Assembly: GCF_002854065.1 (NCBI RefSeq)
Contig: NZ_CP024147.1
Source: Escherichia coli
GTDB taxonomy: Bacteria; Pseudomonadota; Gammaproteobacteria; Enterobacterales; Enterobacteriaceae
Strand: one strand, 5' to 3'
Length of the DNA: 64,000 nt
Below, in pieces: positions 5,326 to 35,125 of the stretch (positions are counted from its first letter, which is position 1; each line of letters starts with the position of its first letter). Made by a program: the position numbers and the translations under genes. The notes below the pieces were generated by a model. The model did not search any database and was not told where the DNA came from. It saw only the letters and a program-made list of their open reading frames with translations.

Positions 5326-5430
5326 ACGGTTATAAATCAACATATTGATTTATAAGCATGGAAATCCCCTGAGTGAAACAACGAATTGCTGTGTGTAGTC
5401 TTTGCCCATCTCCCACGATGGGCTTTTTTT
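5326..5430 (+). ncRNA. rprA: RprA small regulatory RNA (Hfq-dependent activator of rpoS translation)
   Basis: Sequence ACGGTTATAAATCAACATATTGATTTATAAGCATGGAAATCCCCTGAGTGAAACAACGAATTGCTGTGTGTAGTCTTTGCCCATCTCCCACGATGGGCTTTTTTT matches RprA as I recall it, ending in hairpin plus T8 terminator. Confidence 0.85.
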
Positions 5431-5568
5431 TAACATTTTTCCGCTTCGCTACCTCGCCCCTCACTCTTTCCAATAATGTTGCACAAGATACTGTGACTCT
5501 CTTCAAGCCGTCAGCAGGCTGATAATGTTATTTATATTTTATTGTTTATTTCATGCAGCCATTACACG

Positions 5569-5925
5569 ATGAACGCTTATGAACTCCAGGCACTCCGCCA
5601 TATTTTTGCCATGACTATTGATGAATGCGCGACCTGGATTGCCCAGACCGGTGACAGTGAAAGCTGGCGTCAGTGGGAAAATGGCAAATGCGCCATTCCT
5701 GATCGTGTAGTCGAGCAACTGTTGGCTATGCGTCAGCAACGAAAAAAACATCTTCATGCCATTATAGAGAAAATAAATAACCGCATCGGCAACAACACCA
5801 TGCGTTTTTTCCCCGACTTAACCGCGTTTCAACGTGTCTACCCGGATGGCAATTTTATTGACTGGAAGATCTATCAATCGGTAGCCGCTGAATTATATGC
5901 ACACGATCTGGAGCGGCTTTGTTAA
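5569..5925 (+). CDS. ydiL: uncharacterised protein YdiL (118 aa)
   Basis: Track ORF 5542..5925 (TTG start) trimmed to ATG at 5569 (MNAYELQ...). Confidence 0.7.
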   Translation: MNAYELQALRHIFAMTIDECATWIAQTGDSESWRQWENGKCAIPDRVVEQLLAMRQQRKKHLHAIIEKINNRIGNNTMRFFPDLTAFQRVYPDGNFIDWKIYQSVAAELYAHDLERLC

Positions 5926-10543: not shown

Positions 10544-12139
10544 ATGAAACCTGTAAAACCACCTCGTATTAATGGACGAGTGCCGGTCCTGTCGGCACAG
10601 GAAGCGGTGAATTATATTCCCGACGAAGCAACACTTTGTGTGTTAGGCGCTGGCGGCGGTATTCTGGAAGCCACCACGTTAATTACTGCTCTTGCTGATA
10701 AATATAAACAGACTCAAACGCCACGTAATTTATCGATTATTAGTCCAACAGGGCTTGGCGATCGCGCCGACCGTGGTATTAGTCCGCTGGCGCAAGAAGG
10801 TCTGGTTAAATGGGCATTATGCGGTCACTGGGGACAATCGCCGCGTATTTCTGATCTCGCAGAACAAAATAAAATTATTGCTTATAACTATCCACAAGGT
10901 GTACTTACACAAACCTTACGCGCCGCCGCAGCCCACCAGCCTGGTATTATTAGTGATATTGGCATCGGGACATTTGTCGATCCACGCCAGCAAGGCGGCA
11001 AACTGAATGAAGTCACTAAAGAAGACCTGATTAAACTGGTCGAGTTTGATAACAAAGAATATCTCTATTACAAAGCGATTGCGCCAGATATCGCCTTCAT
11101 TCGCGCTACCACCTGCGACAGCGAAGGCTACGCCACTTTTGAAGATGAGGTGATGTATCTCGACGCATTGGTTATTGCCCAGGCGGTGCACAATAACGGC
11201 GGTATTGTGATGATGCAGGTGCAGAAAATGGTTAAGAAAGCCACGCTGCATCCTAAATCTGTCCGTATTCCGGGTTATCTGGTGGATATTGTGGTGGTCG
11301 ATCCGGATCAAACCCAACTGTATGGCGGTGCACCGGTTAACCGCTTTATTTCTGGTGACTTCACCCTTGATGACAGTACCAAACTTAGCCTGCCCCTAAA
11401 CCAACGTAAATTAGTTGCGCGGCGCGCATTATTCGAAATGCGTAAAGGCGCGGTGGGGAATGTCGGCGTCGGTATTGCTGACGGCATTGGCCTGGTCGCT
11501 CGGGAAGAAGGTTGTGCTGATGACTTTATTCTGACGGTAGAAACAGGTCCGATTGGCGGAATTACTTCACAGGGTATCGCCTTTGGCGCGAACGTGAATA
11601 CCCGCGCCATTCTGGATATGACGTCCCAGTTTGATTTTTATCACGGTGGTGGTCTGGATGTTTGTTATTTGAGTTTTGCTGAAGTCGACCAGCACGGTAA
11701 CGTCGGTGTGCATAAATTCAATGGTAAAATCATGGGCACTGGTGGATTTATTGATATCAGTGCCACTTCGAAGAAAATCGTTTTCTGCGGCACATTAACT
11801 GCGGGCAGTTTAAACACAGAAATTACCGACGGCAAATTAAATATCGTCCAGGAAGGACGGGTGAAGAAATTTATTCGGGAACTACCGGAAATTACTTTCA
11901 GCGGAAAAATCGCTCTCGAGCGAGGGCTGGATGTTCGTTATATCACTGAGCGCGCAGTATTCACGCTGAAAGAAGACGGCCTGCATTTAATCGAAATCGC
12001 CCCTGGCGTCGATTTACAAAAAGATATTCTCGACAAAATGGATTTCACCCCAGTAATTTCGCCAGAACTCAAACTGATGGACGAAAGATTATTTATCGAT
12101 GCGGCGATGGGTTTTGTCCTGCCTGAAGCGGCTCATTAA
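10544..12139 (+). CDS. ydiF: family I CoA-transferase (acetate/short-chain acyl-CoA transferase, fused alpha/beta)
   Basis: 531-aa ORF; synteny. Confidence 0.9.
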   Translation: MKPVKPPRINGRVPVLSAQEAVNYIPDEATLCVLGAGGGILEATTLITALADKYKQTQTPRNLSIISPTGLGDRADRGISPLAQEGLVKWALCGHWGQSPRISDLAEQNKIIAYNYPQGVLTQTLRAAAAHQPGIISDIGIGTFVDPRQQGGKLNEVTKEDLIKLVEFDNKEYLYYKAIAPDIAFIRATTCDSEGYATFEDEVMYLDALVIAQAVHNNGGIVMMQVQKMVKKATLHPKSVRIPGYLVDIVVVDPDQTQLYGGAPVNRFISGDFTLDDSTKLSLPLNQRKLVARRALFEMRKGAVGNVGVGIADGIGLVAREEGCADDFILTVETGPIGGITSQGIAFGANVNTRAILDMTSQFDFYHGGGLDVCYLSFAEVDQHGNVGVHKFNGKIMGTGGFIDISATSKKIVFCGTLTAGSLNTEITDGKLNIVQEGRVKKFIRELPEITFSGKIALERGLDVRYITERAVFTLKEDGLHLIEIAPGVDLQKDILDKMDFTPVISPELKLMDERLFIDAAMGFVLPEAAH

Positions 12140-12152
12140 CAGGAGTATCACG

Positions 12153-13304
12153 ATGGATTTTTCTTTAACTGAAGAACAAGAACTGCTGCTGGCCAGTATT
12201 CGCGAACTGATTACGACTAACTTTCCGGAAGAGTATTTCCGCACCTGCGATCAAAACGGGACATACCCGCGTGAATTTATGCGGGCACTGGCGGATAACG
12301 GTATTTCCATGCTTGGCGTGCCGGAAGAATTTGGTGGTATCCCTGCGGATTACGTCACCCAGATGCTGGCGCTGATGGAAGTGTCAAAATGCGGTGCTCC
12401 GGCATTTTTGATCACCAACGGTCAATGTATTCACAGTATGCGCCGTTTCGGTTCTGCAGAGCAGCTACGTAAAACGGCAGAAAGCACCCTGGAAACCGGC
12501 GACCCCGCCTATGCCCTGGCGTTGACGGAACCAGGTGCTGGCTCAGATAACAACAGCGCCACTACCACTTACACGCGTAAAAACGGCAAGGTTTACATCA
12601 ACGGACAGAAAACTTTTATTACCGGTGCGAAAGAGTACCCGTATATGCTGGTGCTGGCGCGCGATCCTGAACCGAAAGATCCCAAAAAAGCCTTCACCCT
12701 GTGGTGGGTCGACTCCAGTAAGCCCGGCATTAAGATTAACCCGCTGCATAAAATCGGCTGGCATATGCTCAGCACCTGCGAAGTCTATCTCGACAACGTG
12801 GAAGTTGAAGAGAGCGACATGGTGGGCGAAGAAGGAATGGGTTTCCTCAATGTGATGTACAACTTTGAGATGGAGCGCCTGATCAACGCCGCGCGCAGCA
12901 CCGGCTTTGCCGAGTGTGCCTTTGAAGATGCCGCCCGCTATGCCAACCAACGTATCGCTTTTGGTAAACCCATTGGTCATAACCAGATGATCCAGGAAAA
13001 ACTGGCGCTGATGGCGATTAAGATCGACAACATGCGCAACATGGTGCTGAAAGTAGCATGGCAAGCCGATCAGCATCAGTCACTGCGCACCAGCGCGGCG
13101 CTGGCAAAACTGTATTGCGCACGTACCGCAATGGAAGTCATTGATGATGCGATTCAAATCATGGGCGGTCTGGGCTATACCGATGAAGCGCGCGTCTCCC
13201 GCTTCTGGCGTGATGTCCGTTGTGAACGTATTGGCGGCGGTACAGACGAAATTATGATTTACGTAGCAGGTCGGCAAATCCTGAAAGACTATCAGAACAA
13301 ATAA
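12153..13304 (+). CDS. ydiO: acyl-CoA dehydrogenase family protein (383 aa)
   Basis: Track ORF 12099..13304 trimmed to ATG at 12153 (MDFSLTEEQ...) with AGGAG RBS. Confidence 0.9.
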   Translation: MDFSLTEEQELLLASIRELITTNFPEEYFRTCDQNGTYPREFMRALADNGISMLGVPEEFGGIPADYVTQMLALMEVSKCGAPAFLITNGQCIHSMRRFGSAEQLRKTAESTLETGDPAYALALTEPGAGSDNNSATTTYTRKNGKVYINGQKTFITGAKEYPYMLVLARDPEPKDPKKAFTLWWVDSSKPGIKINPLHKIGWHMLSTCEVYLDNVEVEESDMVGEEGMGFLNVMYNFEMERLINAARSTGFAECAFEDAARYANQRIAFGKPIGHNQMIQEKLALMAIKIDNMRNMVLKVAWQADQHQSLRTSAALAKLYCARTAMEVIDDAIQIMGGLGYTDEARVSRFWRDVRCERIGGGTDEIMIYVAGRQILKDYQNK

Positions 13305-13346
13305 TCTGCAGGCGGCGCAGCTTCTTAACAAACTGCGCCGCCAGAT

Positions 13347-14258
13347 TTACCCGGCAAGACTTACCGGTTGAGGAAATTCAGATAAGATTTCTTGTTCCGC
13401 AAAACAGTTTTTAAATTGCCTGCGGTAATCGCTGGGCGAACAACCGACATGGCGCAAAAACAGTTTGGCAAAGTGATCGACATTTTCATAACCCACACGC
13501 CAGGAGATCTCTGCCTGTGATAATTCAGTATTAGTGAGTAACCATTTCGCTTCCGTCATACGCCGTTGAATAACATAGTTAATAGGGGAAATACGATACT
13601 CTTTGGTAAATTCATGGCAAATATAACTGACGCTGGCACGAAATTTTTTCGATAACTGTTCTAAAGTGATTTTTTCGCGATAATTATTATTTAGATAGAA
13701 AAGAATATCTTTTATCAGAACATCTTTTTTAATATACCCCTGCTCCGAACGATAAGCATTTTTAAAGTTTTCGTAGTAAAGAATTGCTAATGTATAGGCA
13801 AATGCATCCCATAACGAAGATGTTTGGCTATTTTTACTTTGCGGCAAAATCACACTTAGCTCATTAAATAAGGTTTTAATGACTTCTTTTCCCTGCCCCG
13901 CGGCAATTACCGGACAAGAATGCGGTTGCAGTAGATGATTTTCCTCAGCCCCCTGAAACTGAAAGCCGTACAGCGCACAGGTACACGTCGTTGCCGGATC
14001 GTTAACGTCAGAGGCCACCGCATGCAGCCTGCCGCGTTCTATCACCACTATATCATCTGCATGCGCGACATATAACGAAGAATCGATGGTAAACCTTGCC
14101 ACCCCTTTCTTGACGTAAATCAGCTCGGTTTCATTGTCATGAACGTGATGTCCAGACTCCCATTTTGGATCATCGCTAAATGCAAAACGTGAAAGCCGTG
14201 GCGTTTTACCAGCGACAAACAGCGTTTCACTGGCATTATCAAAACAGCGTTGATACAT
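13347..14258 (-). CDS. ydiP: AraC/XylS-family transcriptional regulator
   Basis: 303-aa ORF with C-terminal AraC-type HTH; AT-rich. Confidence 0.85.
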   Translation of the reverse strand: MYQRCFDNASETLFVAGKTPRLSRFAFSDDPKWESGHHVHDNETELIYVKKGVARFTIDSSLYVAHADDIVVIERGRLHAVASDVNDPATTCTCALYGFQFQGAEENHLLQPHSCPVIAAGQGKEVIKTLFNELSVILPQSKNSQTSSLWDAFAYTLAILYYENFKNAYRSEQGYIKKDVLIKDILFYLNNNYREKITLEQLSKKFRASVSYICHEFTKEYRISPINYVIQRRMTEAKWLLTNTELSQAEISWRVGYENVDHFAKLFLRHVGCSPSDYRRQFKNCFAEQEILSEFPQPVSLAG

Positions 14259-14573
14259 GACAACCTCCCTATTCCATGAGCAAGCAAAAACAATATATGC
14301 CGGATAAAATACGGCGTGTATTGCGGTTATACAACCGCGTTTAGCGAGAGCTAAACAAGATTATTTACACTGAATGCAAGATTGTACGGTCATGGAATAA
14401 CTATATTGCCGCAAATTGCACTTTTGTTTTAGCGATCGCATTTTTTTTGCAAGATTGTTGGCAAGGAAAACAGCTTGCTCCGTCGAAAACCCCGCACCGC
14501 TATCGCACACTATTTTCAGGCCATTTTTACCTTCCATCGGAGATGGTTCCGTATGCGACTCACAGGAGAAATC

Positions 14574-15338
14574 ATGAAAATAATAACCTGCTTTAAGCTG
14601 GTGCCTGAAGAACAGGACATTGTTGTCACTCCAGAATACACCCTGAATTTCGACAATGCCGACGCCAAAATCAGCCAGTTCGATCTCAATGCCATTGAAG
14701 CTGCAAGCCAGCTTGCAACAGATGACGATGAGATAGCCGCGCTGACCGTTGGCGGCTCATTGTTGCAGAACTCGAAAGTGCGCAAAGACGTGCTATCCCG
14801 CGGGCCGCACAGCCTGTATATGGTGCAGGATGCACAACTTGAGCATGCACTGCCTCTCGATACCGCAAAAGCGCTGGCGGCAGCAGTTGAAAAGATCGGC
14901 TTCGATTTACTGATCTTTGGTGAAGGTTCCGGCGACCTTTATGCCCAGCAGGTTGGCTTGCTGGTCGGAGAAATTCTGCAACTTCCGGTGATTAATGCAG
15001 TGAGTGCTATTCAGCGTCAGGGCAATACACTGGTGATTGAACGCACGCTTGAAGATGACGTTGAAGTTATTGAACTCTCTGTTCCAGCCGTGCTCTGCGT
15101 CACCTCCGATATTAACGTGCCACGCATTCCTTCGATGAAAGCCATTCTCGGCGCGGGTAAAAAACCGGTAAATCAGTGGCAGGCAAGTGATATTGGCTGG
15201 AGCCAGAGCGCACCACTTGCTGAACTGACCGGCATTCGCGTACCGCCGCAAACAGAACGTAAGCACATCATTCTCGATAACGATTCGCCGGAGGCCATTG
15301 CCGAGCTGGCGGAACATCTGAAGAAAGCCCTGAACTGA
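14574..15338 (+). CDS. ydiQ: electron transfer flavoprotein beta subunit (FixA-like)
   Basis: Track ORF 14475..15338 trimmed to ATG 14574 (MKIITCFKLVPE...) with AGGAG RBS; 254 aa. Confidence 0.9.
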   Translation: MKIITCFKLVPEEQDIVVTPEYTLNFDNADAKISQFDLNAIEAASQLATDDDEIAALTVGGSLLQNSKVRKDVLSRGPHSLYMVQDAQLEHALPLDTAKALAAAVEKIGFDLLIFGEGSGDLYAQQVGLLVGEILQLPVINAVSAIQRQGNTLVIERTLEDDVEVIELSVPAVLCVTSDINVPRIPSMKAILGAGKKPVNQWQASDIGWSQSAPLAELTGIRVPPQTERKHIILDNDSPEAIAELAEHLKKALN

Positions 15339-15357
15339 AGCCTACGGAGAAGAAACG

Positions 15358-16296
15358 ATGAGTCAATTAAACAGCGTCTGGGTCTTTAGCGATAATCCTG
15401 AACGTTATGCTGAACTGTTTGGCGGCGCTCAGCAATGGGGCCAACAGGTGTATGCCATTGTACAAAATACCGACCAGGTGCAGACAGTTATGCCTTATGG
15501 TCCAAAATGTATTTATGTTCTTGAGCAAAACGACGCGCTGCAACGCACTGAAAATTACGCCGAAAGCATTGCTGCTCTGCTGAAAGATAAACACCCCGCT
15601 ATGTTGCTACTGGCCGCGACGAAACGTGGTAAAGCTCCGGCAGCACGGTTAAGTGTGCAACTGAATGCGGCGCTGGTGAACGATGCCACGGCGGTGGATA
15701 TTGTCGATGGTCACATTTGCGCCGAACACCGGATGTATGGCGGGTTAGCGTTCGCTCAGGAAAAGATCAACAGCTCGCTAGCGATCATTACCCTTGCACC
15801 CGGTGTTCAGGAACCGTGCACCAGTGATACCTCTCATCAGTGCCCGACAGAAACGGTACCTTATGTTGCTCCGCGTCATGAAATTCTCTGTCGCGAGCGC
15901 CGTGCGAAAGCGGCAAGCAGCGTGGACCTGAGCAAAGCAAAACGTGTGGTTGGCGTCGGTCGTGGTCTGGCAGCGCAGGATGACCTGAAAATGGTCCACG
16001 AACTGGCGGCGGTGCTGAATGCTGAAGTCGGCTGTTCACGTCCAATTGCCGAAGGCGAGAACTGGATGGAGCGTGAACGTTATATCGGTGTCTCCGGCGT
16101 GTTGCTGAAATCCGATCTCTACCTGACGCTGGGGATCTCCGGGCAGATCCAACATATGGTTGGCGGCAACGGCGCAAAAGTGATTGTCGCCATCAATAAA
16201 GATAAAAATGCGCCAATCTTCAACTATGCCGACTACGGTCTGGTGGGCGATATCTACAAAGTCGTCCCTACCCTGATTAGCCAGTTGAGCCGCTAA
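15358..16296 (+). CDS. ydiR: electron transfer flavoprotein alpha subunit (FixB-like)
   Basis: 312-aa ORF. Confidence 0.9.
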   Translation: MSQLNSVWVFSDNPERYAELFGGAQQWGQQVYAIVQNTDQVQTVMPYGPKCIYVLEQNDALQRTENYAESIAALLKDKHPAMLLLAATKRGKAPAARLSVQLNAALVNDATAVDIVDGHICAEHRMYGGLAFAQEKINSSLAIITLAPGVQEPCTSDTSHQCPTETVPYVAPRHEILCRERRAKAASSVDLSKAKRVVGVGRGLAAQDDLKMVHELAAVLNAEVGCSRPIAEGENWMERERYIGVSGVLLKSDLYLTLGISGQIQHMVGGNGAKVIVAINKDKNAPIFNYADYGLVGDIYKVVPTLISQLSR

Positions 16297-16351
16297 TTCC
16301 CCTTTCAACCACATCTCCCGCTGTAAACGCAGCGGGAAGGGAGCATAACGC

Positions 16352-17641
16352 ATGTCGGATGACAAATTTGATGCCATTGTGGTCGGTGCGGGCGTTGCTG
16401 GTAGCGTTGCCGCACTGGTCATGGCACGAGCCGGGCTGGATGTCCTGGTGATAGAACGCGGCGACAGTGCCGGATGTAAAAACATGACCGGCGGGCGTCT
16501 TTATGCCCACACACTTGAAGAGATTATTCCAGGCTTTGCAGCATCAGCGCCGGTAGAACGCAAGGTCACACGCGAGAAAATCTCCTTCTTAACCGAAGAG
16601 AGCGCCGTTACCCTCGATTTTCACCGCGAGCAACCAGATGTTCCGCAACACGCATCTTATACCGTATTGCGTAATCGTCTGGACCCGTGGTTGATGGAAC
16701 ATGCCGAGCAGGCGGGCGCACAGTTTATCCCGGGAGTTCGCGTCGATGCGCTGGTTCGTGAAGGAAACAAGGTCACTGGCGTCCAGGCTGGGGATGATAT
16801 TCTCGAAGCGAATGTGGTGATTCTGGCTGATGGCGTTAACTCGATGCTTGGCCGTTCGCTGGGAATGGTTCCCGCTTCCGATCCGCATCATTACGCTGTT
16901 GGTGTTAAAGAGGTTATTGGCCTCACACCAGAACAGATCAACGATCGCTTTAATATTACGGGCGAGGAAGGTGCCGCCTGGCTGTTTGCCGGTTCCCCTT
17001 CTGACGGCCTGATGGGTGGCGGATTCCTCTATACCAATAAGGATTCCATATCGTTGGGGCTGGTTTGTGGATTGGGTGATATCGCCCATGCGCAAAAAAG
17101 CGTGCCGCAAATGCTGGAAGATTTTAAACAACACCCCGCCATTCGCCCGCTGATTAGCGGCGGCAAGTTGCTTGAATATTCCGCGCATATGGTGCCGGAA
17201 GGCGGTCTGGCAATGGTGCCGCAACTGGTTAACGAGGGCGTGATGATCGTTGGTGACGCCGCAGGCTTCTGCCTGAATTTGGGTTTTACGGTCCGCGGCA
17301 TGGATTTAGCCATTGCATCGGCTCAGGCTGCCGCCACAACGGTGATCGCCGCCAAAGAACGCGCGGATTTCTCCGCCAGCAGTCTTGCGCAATACAAACG
17401 TGAGCTGGAACAAAGTTGTGTTATGCGCGATATGCAGCATTTTCGCAAGATCCCGACGCTGATGGAAAATCCGCGCCTGTTTAGTCAGTATCCGCGCATG
17501 GTCGCCGACATCATGAACGATATGTTCACCATTGACGGCAAACCAAACCAGCCGGTACGCAAAATGATCATGGGACACGCGAAGAAAATTGGGCTGATCA
17601 ACTTGCTGAAAGATGGCATTAAGGGAGCAACCGCGCTATGA
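16352..17641 (+). CDS. ydiS: FAD-dependent oxidoreductase, ETF-quinone oxidoreductase-like (FixC-like)
   Basis: 429-aa ORF with N-terminal GxGxxG dinucleotide motif (VVGAGVAGS). Confidence 0.9.
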   Translation: MSDDKFDAIVVGAGVAGSVAALVMARAGLDVLVIERGDSAGCKNMTGGRLYAHTLEEIIPGFAASAPVERKVTREKISFLTEESAVTLDFHREQPDVPQHASYTVLRNRLDPWLMEHAEQAGAQFIPGVRVDALVREGNKVTGVQAGDDILEANVVILADGVNSMLGRSLGMVPASDPHHYAVGVKEVIGLTPEQINDRFNITGEEGAAWLFAGSPSDGLMGGGFLYTNKDSISLGLVCGLGDIAHAQKSVPQMLEDFKQHPAIRPLISGGKLLEYSAHMVPEGGLAMVPQLVNEGVMIVGDAAGFCLNLGFTVRGMDLAIASAQAAATTVIAAKERADFSASSLAQYKRELEQSCVMRDMQHFRKIPTLMENPRLFSQYPRMVADIMNDMFTIDGKPNQPVRKMIMGHAKKIGLINLLKDGIKGATAL

Positions 17642-17931
17642 GCCAGAACGCTACGGTTAACGTCGACATCAAATTAGGCGTCAATAAATTCCATGTTGAT
17701 GAGGGCCACCCGCATATCATTTTGGCGGCAAATCCCGATATCAATGAATTCCGTAAATTAATGAAAGCCTGCCCTGCCGGACTTTATAAGCAGGATGATG
17801 CCGGCAACATTCATTTTGATTCCGCCGGTTGTCTGGAGTGCGGCACCTGTCGGGTGCTGTGCGGTAACACTATTCTCGAACAGTGGCAATATCCCGCAGG
17901 CACCTTCGGTATTGATTTTCGCTACGGCTAA
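17638..17931 (+). CDS. ydiT: ferredoxin-like protein (FixX-like)
   Basis: 97-aa ORF with Cys-rich C-terminus; 4-bp overlap with ydiS. Confidence 0.85.
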   Translation: MSQNATVNVDIKLGVNKFHVDEGHPHIILAANPDINEFRKLMKACPAGLYKQDDAGNIHFDSAGCLECGTCRVLCGNTILEQWQYPAGTFGIDFRYG

Positions 17932-17933
17932 TC

Positions 17934-19262
17934 ATGCATCCCACAGGCCCGCATCTCGGGCCTGATGTTCTGTTTCGAGAGTCCAAAATGAAAGTGACAT
18001 TAACGTTTAACGAACAACGTCGTGCGGCGTATCGTCAGCAAGGGCTATGGGGCGATGCTTCGCTGGCCGATTACTGGCAGCAGACCGCTCGTGCGATGCC
18101 AGACAAAATTGCCGTGGTCGATAATCATGGAGCATCGTACACCTATAGCGCGCTCGATCACGCCGCGAGCTGTCTGGCAAACTGGATGTTAGCGAAGGGT
18201 ATTGAATCAGGCGATCGCATCGCATTTCAACTGCCAGGCTGGTGTGAATTTACCGTTATCTATCTTGCCTGCCTGAAAATCGGTGCGGTTTCCGTACCGC
18301 TGTTGCCTTCCTGGCGGGAAGCAGAACTGGTATGGGTGCTTAATAAGTGTCAGGCAAAAATGTTCTTTGCACCGACGTTGTTTAAACAAACGCGTCCGGT
18401 AGATTTAATCCTGCCGCTGCAAAATCAGCTTCCACAACTACAACAAATTGTCGGCGTGGACAAACTGGCTCCCGCCACCTCTTCCCTCTCATTAAGTCAG
18501 ATTATCGCCGACAATACCCCACTGACCACGGCGATAACGACCCACGGCGATGAATTAGCCGCGGTGCTGTTTACCTCCGGAACCGAGGGCCTGCCAAAGG
18601 GCGTGATGCTTACGCATAACAATATTCTCGCCAGTGAGCGGGCTTATTGCGCGCGGCTGAATCTGACCTGGCAGGATGTCTTTATGATGCCTGCGCCACT
18701 CGGCCACGCAACGGGCTTTCTGCATGGCGTAACAGCACCATTTTTGATTGGTGCTCGCAGCGTGTTGTTAGATATTTTCACTCCTGATGCGTGTCTCGCG
18801 CTGCTTGAGCAGCAGCGTTGCACCTGTATGCTCGGCGCAACGCCGTTTGTCTATGATCTTTTGAATTTACTAGAGAAACAACCCGCAGACCTTTCAGCGC
18901 TGCGCTTCTTTCTTTGCGGCGGTACCACAATCCCCAAAAAAGTGGCGCGTGAATGCCAGCAGCGCGGCATTAAATTATTAAGTGTTTATGGTTCCACAGA
19001 AAGTTCGCCGCATGCGGTGGTGAATCTCGATGATCCTTTGTCGCGCTTTATGCACACCGATGGTTACGCTGCCGCAGGTGTAGAGATTAAAGTGGTCGAT
19101 GACGCACGCAAGACCTTACCGCCAGGTTGCGAAGGTGAAGAAGCCTCGCGTGGCCCCAATGTGTTTATGGGGTATTTTGATGAACCTGAATTAACCGCCC
19201 GAGCCCTGGATGAAGAAGGCTGGTATTACAGCGGCGATCTCTGCCGTATGGATGAAGCTGGC
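17934..19262 (+). pseudogene. fadK: 5' fragment of short-chain acyl-CoA synthetase fadK/ydiD, truncated by IS1 insertion (reading frame runs into IS1 and stops at 19287..19289)
   Basis: Track ORF 17934..19289; AMP-binding motif TSGTEGLPKG present; alternative start at 17988 (MKVTLTF). Confidence 0.85.
19254..19262. repeat. 9-bp target-site duplication (gaagctggc), left copy
   Basis: Identical 9-mer immediately flanks both IS1 ends. Confidence 0.85.
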
Positions 19263-19317
19263 GGTGATGCTGCCAACTTACTGATTTAGTGTATGATGGT
19301 GTTTTTGAGGTGCTCCA

Positions 19318-19593
19318 GTGGCTTCTGTTTCTATCAGCTGTCCCTCCTGTTCAGCTACTGACGGGGTGGTGCGTAACGGCAAAAGCACTGCCGGACATCA
19401 GCGCTATCTCTGCTCTCACTGCCGTAAAACATGGCAACTGCAGTTCACTTACACCGCTTCTCAACCCGGTACGCACCAGAAAATCATTGATATGGCCATG
19501 AATGGCGTTGGATGCCGGGCAACCGCCCGCATTATGGGCGTTGGCCTCAACACGATTTTCCGCCATTTAAAAAACTCAGGCCGCAGTCGGTAA
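19318..19593 (+). CDS. insA: IS1 InsA (transposition inhibitor / DNA-binding N-terminal part of transposase)
   Basis: 91-aa [40 protein letters not shown]...; GTG start. Confidence 0.9.
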
Positions 19594-20015
19594 CCTCGCG
19601 CATACAGCCGGGCAGTGACGTCATCGTCTGCGCGGAAATGGACGAACAGTGGGGATACGTCGGGGCTAAATCGCGCCAGCGCTGGCTGTTTTACGCGTAT
19701 GACAGGCTCCGGAAGACGGTTGTTGCGCACGTATTCGGTGAACGCACTATGGCGACGCTGGGGCGTCTTATGAGCCTGCTGTCACCCTTTGACGTGGTGA
19801 TATGGATGACGGATGGCTGGCCGCTGTATGAATCCCGCCTGAAGGGAAAGCTGCACGTAATCAGCAAGCGATATACGCAGCGAATTGAGCGGCATAACCT
19901 GAATCTGAGGCAGCACCTGGCACGGCTGGGACGGAAGTCGCTGTCGTTCTCAAAATCGGTGGAGCTGCATGACAAAGTCATCGGGCATTATCTGAACATA
20001 AAACACTATCAATAA
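19512..20015 (+). CDS. insB: IS1 InsB reading frame (expressed as InsAB' transposase by -1 frameshift)
   Basis: 167-aa ORF in the -1 frame relative to insA. Confidence 0.85.
19569..19575 (+). other. A6C slippery motif for programmed -1 ribosomal frameshift of IS1 transposase
   Basis: ttaaaaaactc read directly in the insA/insB overlap. Confidence 0.7.
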
Positions 20016-20030
20016 GTTGGAGTCATTACC

Positions 20031-20039
20031 GAAGCTGGC
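20031..20039. repeat. 9-bp target-site duplication (gaagctggc), right copy
   Basis: Identical to 19254..19262. Confidence 0.85.
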
Positions 20040-20414
20040 TATATAAAAATAACCGGGCGCAAGAAAGATATTATTGTCCGCGGCGGCGAAAATATTAGCA
20101 GCCGTGAAGTGGAAGATATTTTATTACAGCATCCTAAAATTCACGATGCTTGTGTGGTTGCAATGCCCGATGAACGCTTAGGTGAACGTTCATGCGCTTA
20201 TGTCGTGCTGAAAGCACCGCATCATTCATTATCGCTGGAAGATGTAGTGGCTTTTTTTAGCCGTAAACGGGTCGCAAAATATAAATACCCTGAACATATC
20301 GTGGTAATCGAAAAACTACCGCGCACTGCCTCAGGTAAAATACAAAAGTTTTTGTTAAGAAAAGATATTATGCGGCGATTAACGCAGGATGTCTGTGAAG
20401 AGATTGAATAAGTT
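20040..20414 (+). pseudogene. fadK: 3' fragment of fadK/ydiD (C-terminal domain of acyl-CoA synthetase)
   Basis: In frame with the 5' fragment once IS1 and one TSD copy are removed; track ORF 20109..20411 carries the C-terminal part. Confidence 0.85.
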
Positions 20415-30886: not shown

Positions 30887-30986
30887 GGTATCCGTTCTGC
30901 TGAAGTGTCATGGCGTTGATTTTACGGTGACTCTTCGACAGTGAAAAGAAAAAAGGCCGCAGAGCGGCCTTTTTAGTTAGATCAGA

Positions 30987-31286
30987 TTACTCGTCTTTGG
31001 GCGAAGCGTTTTCGACCCGGCTTTTTAACTTCTGCCCGGGTCTGAAGGTCACCACGCGCCGTGCTGTAATGGGAATATCCTCGCCCGTTTTCGGGTTACG
31101 TCCCGGGCGTTGATTCTTATCACGCAGATCGAAGTTACCAAAACCAGAGAGTTTCACCTGTTCGCCGTTTTCCAGAGCGCGACGGATCTCTTCGAAAAAC
31201 AGTTCAACCAGTTCTTTGGCATCCCGCTTGCTAAGCCCAAGCTTATCAAACAGATATTCTGACATTTCAGCTTTTGTAAGCGCCAT
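30987..31286 (-). CDS. ihfA: integration host factor alpha subunit
   Basis: 99-aa ORF recognised as IHF-alpha. Confidence 0.95.
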
Positions 31287-34884: not shown

Positions 34885-34912
34885 ACAAAAAAAGCCTCCA
34901 CTGGGAGGCTTT
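34885..34912 (-). terminator. pheST attenuator terminator (hairpin agcctcccagtggaggct followed by T7 on minus strand)
   Basis: Read directly between pheM and pheS. Confidence 0.65.
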
Positions 34913-34958
34913 CAGGCGCTGTTTTCCGTTTCTCTTCTCACGCGCTAGCCTCCTGGAT

Positions 34959-35003
34959 TCAGGTGCTAAAGTAAAAAAAGAAGCGGAAAATAGCAGCATT
35001 CAT
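34959..35003 (-). CDS. pheM: pheST operon leader peptide [14 protein letters not shown] (Phe-rich, 14 aa)
   Basis: Read directly on minus strand; 5 Phe codons in 14. Confidence 0.8.
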
Positions 35004-35125
35004 TGCTTGCGTTACCTTTTGGTACTCTTCAAAAGACCTTTATTGAAAAGGCTACGGCGATAAAAGTCAATGTTTTGATGGCGTTGAAACGAAAAGAGGG
35101 AGACTAGCTCCCTCTTTCAACTGGC

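Follow-up and report, generated by a model that had tools for sequence, protein, structure and literature searches.

Deletion of the DNA next to an inserted element is classical behavior for IS1. A two-step course, in which insertion is followed by deletion of adjacent DNA, has been documented for IS150 in the Escherichia coli long-term evolution experiment (PMC11708052). With respect to target choice, IS1 is reported to prefer A/T-rich stretches of 8-9 bp, a "relaxed" specificity in which a clear motif is otherwise absent (PMC10359306, PMC5009759), and for IS186 a hot spot of the form GGGG(N6/7)CCCC has been described, one site of which was hit 16 times and in both orientations (PMC5009759). 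FadK, the product of the gene considered here, has been described as a short/medium-chain acyl-CoA synthetase (Morgan-Kiss and Cronan, 2004, as cited in PMC9329746). The label "anaerobic" goes back to the original proposal and has since been questioned, and a fadK single mutant grows normally, since FadD takes over the function of FadK (PMC9329746).

In the window analyzed here, a stretch of 64,000 nucleotides from E. coli (contig NZ_CP024147.1), fadK is interrupted by IS1. The disruption of this dispensable gene is a known kind of event, IS1 insertions being routine, and as such it is of little importance; no papers combining fadK with IS1 were found in a search of the literature. The locus nevertheless bears comparison with both systems above. 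Like the IS186 hot spot it has received repeated independent insertions at one nucleotide and in both orientations. In contrast to the A/T-rich targets described for IS1, however, its duplicated 9-mer is G+C-rich and A/T-richness is confined to the neighboring DNA, and a single site yields no consensus. Compared with the IS150 deletions, the relatives 100416, CUWW06 and PM7 represent the deletion step, whereas the window represents the step before it. We favor, with a probability of about 0.93, ordinary IS1 transposition into fadK, resulting in a probable null allele, at a natural hot spot and as a lineage intermediate that precedes deletion.

A Complete IS1 Element in fadK

The element (19263-20030, plus strand) is 768 bp long, and its insA and insB genes are read in the direction of fadK. 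An imperfect inverted repeat of about 23 bp forms each terminus, and a repeat finder returned 24-nt arms with 79% complementarity: the left repeat (IRL, 19263-19285, plus strand) reads GGTGATGCTGCCAACTTACTGAT and the right repeat (IRR, 20008-20030, plus strand) reads ATCAATAAGTTGGAGTCATTACC, with GGTAATGACTCCAACTTATTGAT as its reverse complement. The insA gene (19318-19593, plus strand) starts with GTG and encodes a zinc-finger/HTH regulator of 91 aa that scores 41 bits (cutoff 28) against the NCBIfam model of the IS1/IS1595 zinc-binding domain. The catalytic part of the transposase lies in the insB' frame (19512-20015, plus strand, counted from the first in-frame ATG), which is joined to insA by a programmed -1 frameshift at the AAAAAAC (A6C) site at 19569-19575 (plus strand; position 307 of the IS). 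InsB' is functionally expressed as an InsAB' fusion, here 19318-20015. With the -1 shift modeled, InsAB' is an uninterrupted protein of 232 aa that matches the equivalog NF033558 (transpos_IS1, IS1 family transposase) over the whole profile (positions 1-199 of 199) with 242.7 bits (cutoff 100), and PF03400 (DDE_Tnp_IS1) was found on the equivalent insB' gene in the related sequence L013.

When aligned to IS1A of K-12 (NC_000913.3, 19796-20563), 760 of the 768 positions are identical (8 differences, 99.0%), and the copies in 100416 and CUWW06, annotated by RefSeq as IS1B-family, are 100% identical to that of the window. Length, inverted repeats, frameshifted frames, transposase model, 9-bp duplication and reference identity all place the element in the IS1 family, and its structure equals that of IS1A and IS1B of K-12 in every respect, the window copy being one more at a site that is empty in K-12. 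With its reading frames and ends intact and identical copies elsewhere in sister genomes, which carry at least 40 IS1 pieces, it is apparently competent for transposition.

Both ends of the element abut the same 9-mer, GAAGCTGGC, at 19254-19262, corresponding to fadK nt 1321-1329, and as a perfect match at 20031-20039. For two fixed positions, the probability that 9 bp agree by chance is 3.8e-6. The empty site of K-12 carries the target once, as the allele GAGGCTGGC. The first-pass annotation, made from the letters of the sequence, had described a complete 768-bp IS1 with both repeats, insA, insB and the A6C motif, flanked on both sides by gaagctggc, and our analysis agrees with it in each of these points and in their coordinates. 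Scanning the window against Rfam revealed no RNA element at or near the insertion.

Reconstruction of fadK and Expected Effect of the Insertion

The 5' fragment of fadK (17934-19262, plus strand, from the list of open reading frames) aligns to nt 1-1329 of the K-12 gene and holds codons 1-443 with the AMP-binding domain. Its frame continues for 27 nt into IS1 and stops at the TAG of 19287-19289; the product has 451 aa, and in it the native ...MDEAG is followed by GDAANLLI. The 3' fragment (20031-20411, plus strand) holds codons 441-566 and the stop, with the remainder of the hinge (YIKITGRKKD), the AMP-binding_C domain and Lys543; within it lies an open reading frame of 100 aa (20109-20411) that is often called as a separate gene. 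Once IS1 and one copy of the target are removed (17934-19262 joined to 20040-20411), a single open gene of 1,701 nt and 566 aa is restored, with one target copy at nt 1321-1329 and the frame kept across the junction, as had been proposed. It equals K-12 fadK in length and differs from it by 39 nt and 6 aa (97.7% nucleotide identity). The K-12 gene (ydiD, b1701) was described as intact in the first-pass annotation and is so in MG1655 (1782977-1784677, 566 aa); likewise, the proposed position of fadK at the 3' end of the ydiQRST-fadK cluster is borne out by the gene order, fadK being the last gene after ydiQRST and convergent with ppsA in both the window and K-12.

The reconstructed protein has AMP-binding (PF00501) at residues 49-415 and AMP-binding_C (PF13193) at 466-543, the motifs GRKKD (449-453) and PRTASGK (537-543), and in its 548-aa form matches the equivalog NF004758 at positions 1-547 of 548 with 1091 bits (cutoff 736). 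IS1 interrupts the hinge motif SGDLCRMDEAG/YIKITGRKKD at the boundary of G443 and Y444. While length and neighbors of the reconstructed gene are those of K-12, the gene in the window is thus broken after codon 443 and its product lacks the C-terminal domain; neither fragment would be full length against the FadK model. AMP-binding and AMP-binding_C, which in the intact enzyme share one polypeptide, are located on separate reading frames, which makes the gene a pseudogene and not a functional member of the family. RefSeq annotation of related genomes already lists a fadK pseudogene, IS1 and an AMP-binding fragment. In enzymes of the ANL adenylate-forming superfamily, to which FadK belongs as a medium/short-chain fatty-acid--CoA ligase, adenylation requires the C-terminal domain and its lysine. 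Because the AMP-binding domain is detached from Lys543 and the domain that carries it, loss of function is to be expected and fadK::IS1 is very probably a null allele, as judged from the sequence.

In a collection of 15 billion proteins, the truncated FadK products of 451 aa and 433 aa had no exact match. The product of the 100-aa reading frame matched exactly on 153 contigs, a number that is not a count of the window insertion since the same sequence also occurs in L017, L019 and L020, drafts of other lineages with oppositely oriented IS1 (see below), and in a noisy metagenome contig with an empty site (L014).

Recurrent Insertion at fadK nt 1321-1329

IS1 in or abutting fadK is a minority state, present in about 30 of 5,426 complete E. 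coli genomes. Several of these carry it at exactly the site of the window. In LST200A, VTB97420v and 20377 it is in the plus orientation, to which 22919 can be added by inference from identical hit statistics, and in EC20-4B-2, PRO_A-1462 and RM14721, together with the drafts L017, L019 and L020, it is in the minus orientation. All same-site hits outside the lineage of the window have GAGGCTGGC on both sides. Under uniform targeting of fadK, 7 or more of 17 mapped lineages would share one site with a probability of about 1e-15. Insertions also recur at a second site, nt 1684-1692, and in 300709 and 30EVA1 IS1 is found 9 nt before the stop codon, leaving an annotated, nearly full-length fadK. 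All mapped fadK insertions fall into the 3' 28% of the gene (nt 1229-1692), which has 57% A+T versus 47%.

We consider it likely that nt 1321-1329, GA(A/G)GCTGGC directly 5' of TATATAAAAAT, serves IS1 as a natural hot spot that is precise to the nucleotide and is used in both orientations and by three isoforms. The number of independent events at this position is at least four and probably 7-10, where any count above the strict minimum of four assumes that the locus has not recombined between lineages and that IS1 copies have not undergone gene conversion.

Selection for the loss of fadK, or of the whole ydiO-fadK cluster, might account for the recurrence in place of a target preference of IS1. 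Besides the genomes with IS1 in or abutting fadK, this would explain the IS1-flanked deletions of ydiO-fadK' or ydiF'-fadK' in at least four lineages (100416/CUWW06, ET76/EC6/ES1, PM7). It is an unlikely explanation, however, for it leaves the precision to the nucleotide unaccounted for, any disruptive position serving equally well, and it predicts neither the confinement of the mapped insertions to the A/T-richer 3' part of the gene nor insertions such as those of 300709 and 30EVA1, which spare nearly all of it.

Even less probable is a single ancient insertion at nt 1321-1329 that was spread by homologous recombination, in which case there would be no hot spot at all. E. coli does recombine, the isolates of the window lineage share one insertion by descent, and gene conversion can homogenize IS1 copies, so that differences between IS1 sequences are weak evidence when taken alone. 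But the element is present in both orientations at the same nucleotide, and one carrier, EC20-4B-2, has the isoform IS1X2, which is 93.9% identical. The target allele is GAA in some carriers and GAG in others and is the same in both copies of each, from which it follows that every carrier duplicated the allele present at its own site. Between same-site carriers the flanks show 26-79 nt differences per 3 kb, and the carriers also differ in SNPs as close as 20 bp or less to the junctions. The flanks of RM14721 are only 2 of 3000 nt away from K-12, which has the empty site. Taken together, orientations, target alleles, SNPs, the IS1X2 copy and the RM14721 flanks require the minimum of four events. 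A single origin is thereby refuted as a complete explanation, while some of the plus-orientation cases with GAGGCTGGC could still merge into one if their phylogeny pointed to a common imported segment.

According to the preferred reading, repeated transposition into a natural hot spot, IS1 entered fadK with duplication of the 9-bp GAAGCTGGC, and left the adenylation domain fused to 8 IS1-encoded residues and cut off from the PRTASGK lysine (K543), with the upstream genes ydiO-ydiT and the convergent ppsA untouched. Different IS1 variants entered the same site in either orientation in unrelated E. coli lineages, and in that of the window the insertion is an intermediate, the next step in close relatives being IS1-mediated deletion of the adjacent ydiO-fadK'. 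Recurrence at one nucleotide by different IS1 variants and in both orientations is sharper than the loosely A/T-seeking IS1 of the literature would suggest. If the hot spot is real, it offers a natural substrate for what the IS1 transposase, or a DNA-bending host factor at the boundary between G+C-rich DNA and A-tract, recognizes, and the ydiO-fadK cluster would be subject to recurrent erosion in IS1-rich E. coli.

Sequence Context of the Target

The duplicated 9-mer is itself G+C-rich and abuts an A/T tract of 13 nt. The adjoining stretch TATATAAAAATAACC (20040-20054) has 87% A+T, which ranks it second among the 1,687 15-mers of fadK. In 2273-PO3 and ET76 IS1 is inserted within or just after this tract. 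These observations are suggestive of the A/T tract as a likely determinant of IS1 targeting. A/T-richness as a sufficient cause can be rejected, as equally A/T-rich stretches of fadK at nt 1036 and 1626-1647 have been hit less often, and 1.2% of the 15-mers of the window equal or exceed this tract in A+T content.

By eye, the target (GATGAAGCTGGC) may bear some resemblance to the IS1 end (GATGCTGCC), to which we attach no weight.

Shared Insertion and Adjacent Deletions in the Lineage of the Window

The insertion with the same target allele, orientation and IS1 sequence is common to GCA_900449015.1, an NCTC assembly, and to the drafts L015, L016 and L018, whose right junction is the same as in the window. 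L013 is 99.956% identical to the window over 18.3 kb, IS1 included. Among the 5,426 complete RefSeq E. coli genomes, none has the full structure at more than 99% identity, the best full-length match being 98.7%. The initial description of the insertion as a strain-specific loss must be qualified: it is shared with the four assemblies just named, and the same site has been hit in unrelated lineages, even if insertion remains a minority state.

The closest relative, 100416, is 99.95-100% identical and yet a deletion derivative. In this genome and in CUWW06, IS1 and its right junction are 100% identical to the window, and about 7.1 kb, from ydiO to the 5' part of fadK, are gone flush with the left end of IS1. 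The segment missing from 100416 (12126-19262) comprises the last 14 nt of ydiF, then ydiO, ydiP, ydiQ, ydiR, ydiS, ydiT and the fadK 5' part, and its junction, in which window position 12125 is joined to IRL, reads ...GTCCTGCCTG followed directly by GGTGATGCTGCC. In CUWW06 the deletion extends 37 bp further into ydiF, with ...GGACGAAAGA followed directly by GGTGATG. PM7 has an inverted IS1 with ydiO on one side and fadK, from nt 1321, on the other. All three have kept the IS and one junction, while the other flank is flush with distal DNA and a target duplication is absent, as is typical of adjacent deletion; the window itself, by contrast, has no deletion. Its insertion is ancestral to the deletion derivatives in 100416 and CUWW06. 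Either intramolecular transposition or recombination with a transient second copy of IS1 may have given rise to these, both mechanisms being compatible with the junctions. Together, the window, 100416 and CUWW06 form a clean natural series, from an insertion with its target duplication to a flush adjacent deletion, in which a metabolic cluster can be seen to erode as IS1 expands.

Since IS1-associated deletions are found at this very element in 100416 and CUWW06, IS1-rich genomes with at least 40 IS1 pieces, the window copy might also be suspected of marking a rearrangement junction, formed by inversion or by recombination between two IS1 copies. The flanks argue strongly against this. They align to K-12 fadK with an overlap of only 9 bp, at nt 1321-1329, so that nothing else is rearranged; on the left of IS1 more than 10 kb, and on the right about 4 kb, are colinear with K-12 without a break, and the genes follow the K-12 order from ydiJ through ppsA and further. 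With the target duplication intact on top of this colinearity, a rearrangement junction is refuted for the window, and the simple insertion inferred in the first-pass annotation stands. It is equally hard to credit that a collapsed or misplaced IS1 repeat has produced the insertion as an assembly artefact, for although assemblies classically go wrong at IS copies and many short-read drafts are interrupted exactly at this point (L015-L020), the independent long-read NCTC assembly has the identical structure and several complete genomes from different laboratories have IS1 at this site with clean target duplications.

IS1 insertion and the reconstructed fadK

The acyl-CoA synthetase gene fadK (ydiD, b1701) is split in the window by a 768-bp element (19263-20030) with imperfect inverted ends, the first bases being GGTGATGCTGCCAACTTACTGAT and the last ATCAATAAGTTGGAGTCATTACC. 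It encodes insA (19318-19593, 91 aa) and the insB frame (ORF 19512-20015), with an AAAAAAC slippery run at 19569, and once a -1 frameshift is modelled InsAB' becomes an uninterrupted protein of 232 aa; its full-length match to the curated IS1 transposase model NF033558 scores 242.7 bits (cutoff 100 bits). Only 8 of 768 positions differ from IS1A of K-12. The element shows every testable defining feature of IS1, and the complete IS1 with both ends, insA, insB and the A6C motif described in the first-pass annotation is indeed present.

Two copies of GAAGCTGGC directly abut IS1 (19254-19262 and 20031-20039), forming the perfect 9-bp target-site duplication (TSD) that had been reported; the probability that two fixed positions agree over this length by chance is ~4e-6. 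Removing IS1 and one TSD copy (17934-19262 joined to 20040-20411) yields, as predicted, a single open frame of 1,701 nt and 566 aa, exactly the length of fadK in K-12 MG1655 (b1701, 1782977-1784677), which is intact as had been stated and differs by 39 nt and 6 aa. The reconstructed FadK, in its 548-aa form, scores 1091 bits on the equivalog NF004758 (cutoff 736 bits). The target 9-mer is single-copy in the reconstructed gene (nt 1321-1329), and K-12 carries it once at the junction as the allele GAGGCTGGC. Since both flanks align continuously with K-12 (left, >10 kb; right, ~4 kb), and these alignments overlap by the 9 duplicated bases only, the structure represents a simple insertion with no rearrangement junction. 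The finding is real and its initial interpretation correct, the event being biologically ordinary. RefSeq records of related genomes already show this configuration: fadK and an "AMP-binding enzyme" are both annotated as partial, and the IS1 transposase as having a programmed frameshift.

On the reconstructed FadK, Pfam assigns residues 49-415 to an AMP-binding domain and residues 466-543 to AMP-binding_C. IS1 lies between G443 and Y444, where SGDLCRMDEAG joins YIKITGRKKD, and the remaining 5' ORF (451 aa) stops 8 codons inside the element. In the ANL adenylate-forming superfamily, the adenylation half-reaction depends on the C-terminal domain with its lysine, and for thioester formation that domain rotates about the hinge. 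Because domain and lysine (K543 of the PRTASGK motif) here lie beyond IS1, we infer that fadK::IS1 would be a null allele; the locus is a pseudogene. The phenotype of this loss is expected to be mild. FadK activity peaks on C6-C8, and its anaerobic specificity, once proposed, is now in question (PMC9329746). As indicated by the first-pass annotation, fadK ends its cluster (ydiQ, ydiR, ydiS, ydiT, fadK in K-12). It is convergent with ppsA, and with ydiO through ydiT all full length in the window, no polar effect on the neighbours would be expected.

Deletion derivatives in the lineage

The proposed strain specificity of the loss stood only in part: the exact structure was found in none of 5,426 complete RefSeq E. 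coli genomes, but the insertion is shared by the NCTC contig GCA_900449015.1 (4.7 Mb), which is 99.956% identical over 18.3 kb, IS1 included, and has both GAAGCTGGC copies around the element. Three draft contigs with the same allele (L015, L016, L018) end within the right end of IS1 with an identical junction. Strain 100416 (Gambia), 100.0% identical to the window over its downstream 24 kb, retains this IS1 and its right junction, with the left inverted repeat (IRL) joined directly to window position 12125. It lacks 7,137 bp (12126-19262), flush with IRL, and has lost the last 14 nt of ydiF, ydiO, ydiP, ydiQRST, the 5' part of fadK and the left TSD copy. In CUWW06 (Thailand), a second near-identical complete genome, the IS1 and its right junction are likewise kept, and the deletion reaches 37 bp deeper into the 3' end of ydiF.

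Comparison of the TSD-bearing window with these deleted relatives indicates that it keeps the intermediate state, an insertion with its TSD intact. The flush deletions arose from this insertion, through either intramolecular transposition or recombination with a transient second IS1. A two-step course of insertion and then deletion, like that of the window lineage, has been seen experimentally for IS150 (PMC11708052). The lineage is rich in IS1, each genome carrying at least 40 pieces of it. The chitobiose operon (chbF-chbR-chbA-chbC, ~52680-56745) is apparently intact in the window, and in 100416 an identical IS1 (L025, 12366-13473) stands in place of the segment from chbC to the 5' part of chbF (chbB-IS1-'celF), a further IS1-associated deletion. 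In the window (5569-5925) the 118 codons of ydiL are uninterrupted; RefSeq lists the gene in 100416 as a pseudogene carrying an internal stop. Decay seems less advanced in the window strain than in this closest complete relative.

Recurrent insertion at one site of fadK

The unrelated strains LST200A, VTB97420v and 20377 carry IS1 at the same fadK nt 1321-1329 in the window orientation, and EC20-4B-2, PRO_A-1462 and RM14721 carry it inverted. Strain 22919 probably belongs to the window-orientation group, its match statistics being identical to those of 20377. Among draft contigs, L017 has the window orientation and L019 and L020 the inverted one. PM7 shows an inverted IS1 with the same right junction and a deletion into ydiO, and TUM14664 and 102651 share its match pattern. 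The duplication reads GAAGCTGGC on both sides in the window lineage and GAGGCTGGC on both sides in the other carriers, so each was copied from the local allele. The element of EC20-4B-2 is the IS1X2 isoform (93.9% identical), and carriers differ in SNPs within 20 bp of the junctions. Together, the two orientations, two TSD alleles, the isoform and these SNPs require at least four independent insertions. The true number is probably seven or more, judging from pairwise flank differences of 26-79 nt per 3 kb, a level corresponding to divergence across the species, and from RM14721, whose flanks are 2 nt from K-12, where the site is empty.

Searching complete genomes with the construct in both IS1 orientations revealed IS1 in or adjoining the fadK/ydiT region in 11 genomes per orientation, plus deletion derivatives. 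Apart from the hot spot at nt 1321-1329, insertions map to nt ~1230-1238 (26561), 1334-1341 (2273-PO3), ~1345 (ET76 group, with a deletion into ydiF), 1362-1370 (SY3626), ~1424-1432 (STEC388), 1540-1547 (UID2309220033), 1661-1669 (ET245) and 1684-1692 (window ~20394-20402). The last is a second recurrent target, TGTGAAGA, 9 nt ahead of the stop, hit in 300709 and, inverted, in the unrelated 30EVA1; OXA-181 (H141) is probably a further carrier of this insertion. All mapped events fall within nt 1229-1692 (window 19162-19262 and 20040-20411), and in complete genomes the first 1,228 nt are free of them, a distribution paralleled by A+T content (57% in the 3' part, 47% in the rest). If ~17 lineage-level events were uniform, the chance of seven at one site would be ~1e-15, or ~1e-12 when restricted to the 3' part. 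In the 90%-identity cluster of a 100-aa FadK 3'-ORF protein, many "partial" proteins of 96-105 aa come from Shigella sonnei draft contig ends, which suggests that in this species too fadK is interrupted by a repeat element, a little downstream of the window site.

Base composition may account for part of this pattern. The 15 nt directly right of the 9-mer, TATATAAAAATAACC, are 87% A+T, second among all fadK 15-mers, which fits the reported preference of IS1. IS1 has been described as lacking a clear sequence motif apart from preferring AT-rich regions (PMC5009759), and its motifs as loosely conserved, with relaxed specificity and 78% 9-bp TSDs (PMC10359306). However, other stretches of fadK are equally A/T-rich and the 9-mer itself is G+C-rich, so that composition is not a sufficient cause, and the nucleotide precision is sharper than this loose published picture. 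Selection for loss of fadK, as the source of the recurrence, cannot explain one-nucleotide precision, and the two insertions 9 nt before the stop leave an annotated fadK that is nearly full-length despite IS1. The hot spot refines what is known of IS1 behaviour only modestly; as no mention of fadK together with IS1 was found in the literature searched, it may be unreported.

Other features of the window

At the gathering threshold, Rfam matches RprA sRNA (5326-5433), STnc540 (30887-31045), the Phe leader (pheM, 34885-35009) and ES036/CssrF (58897-58939), none near IS1 and all expected for this chromosomal region. Beside thrS lies an intact 632-aa ORF (38826-40724), annotated in RefSeq, in the identical region of 100416, as the type III secretion effector EspL1.
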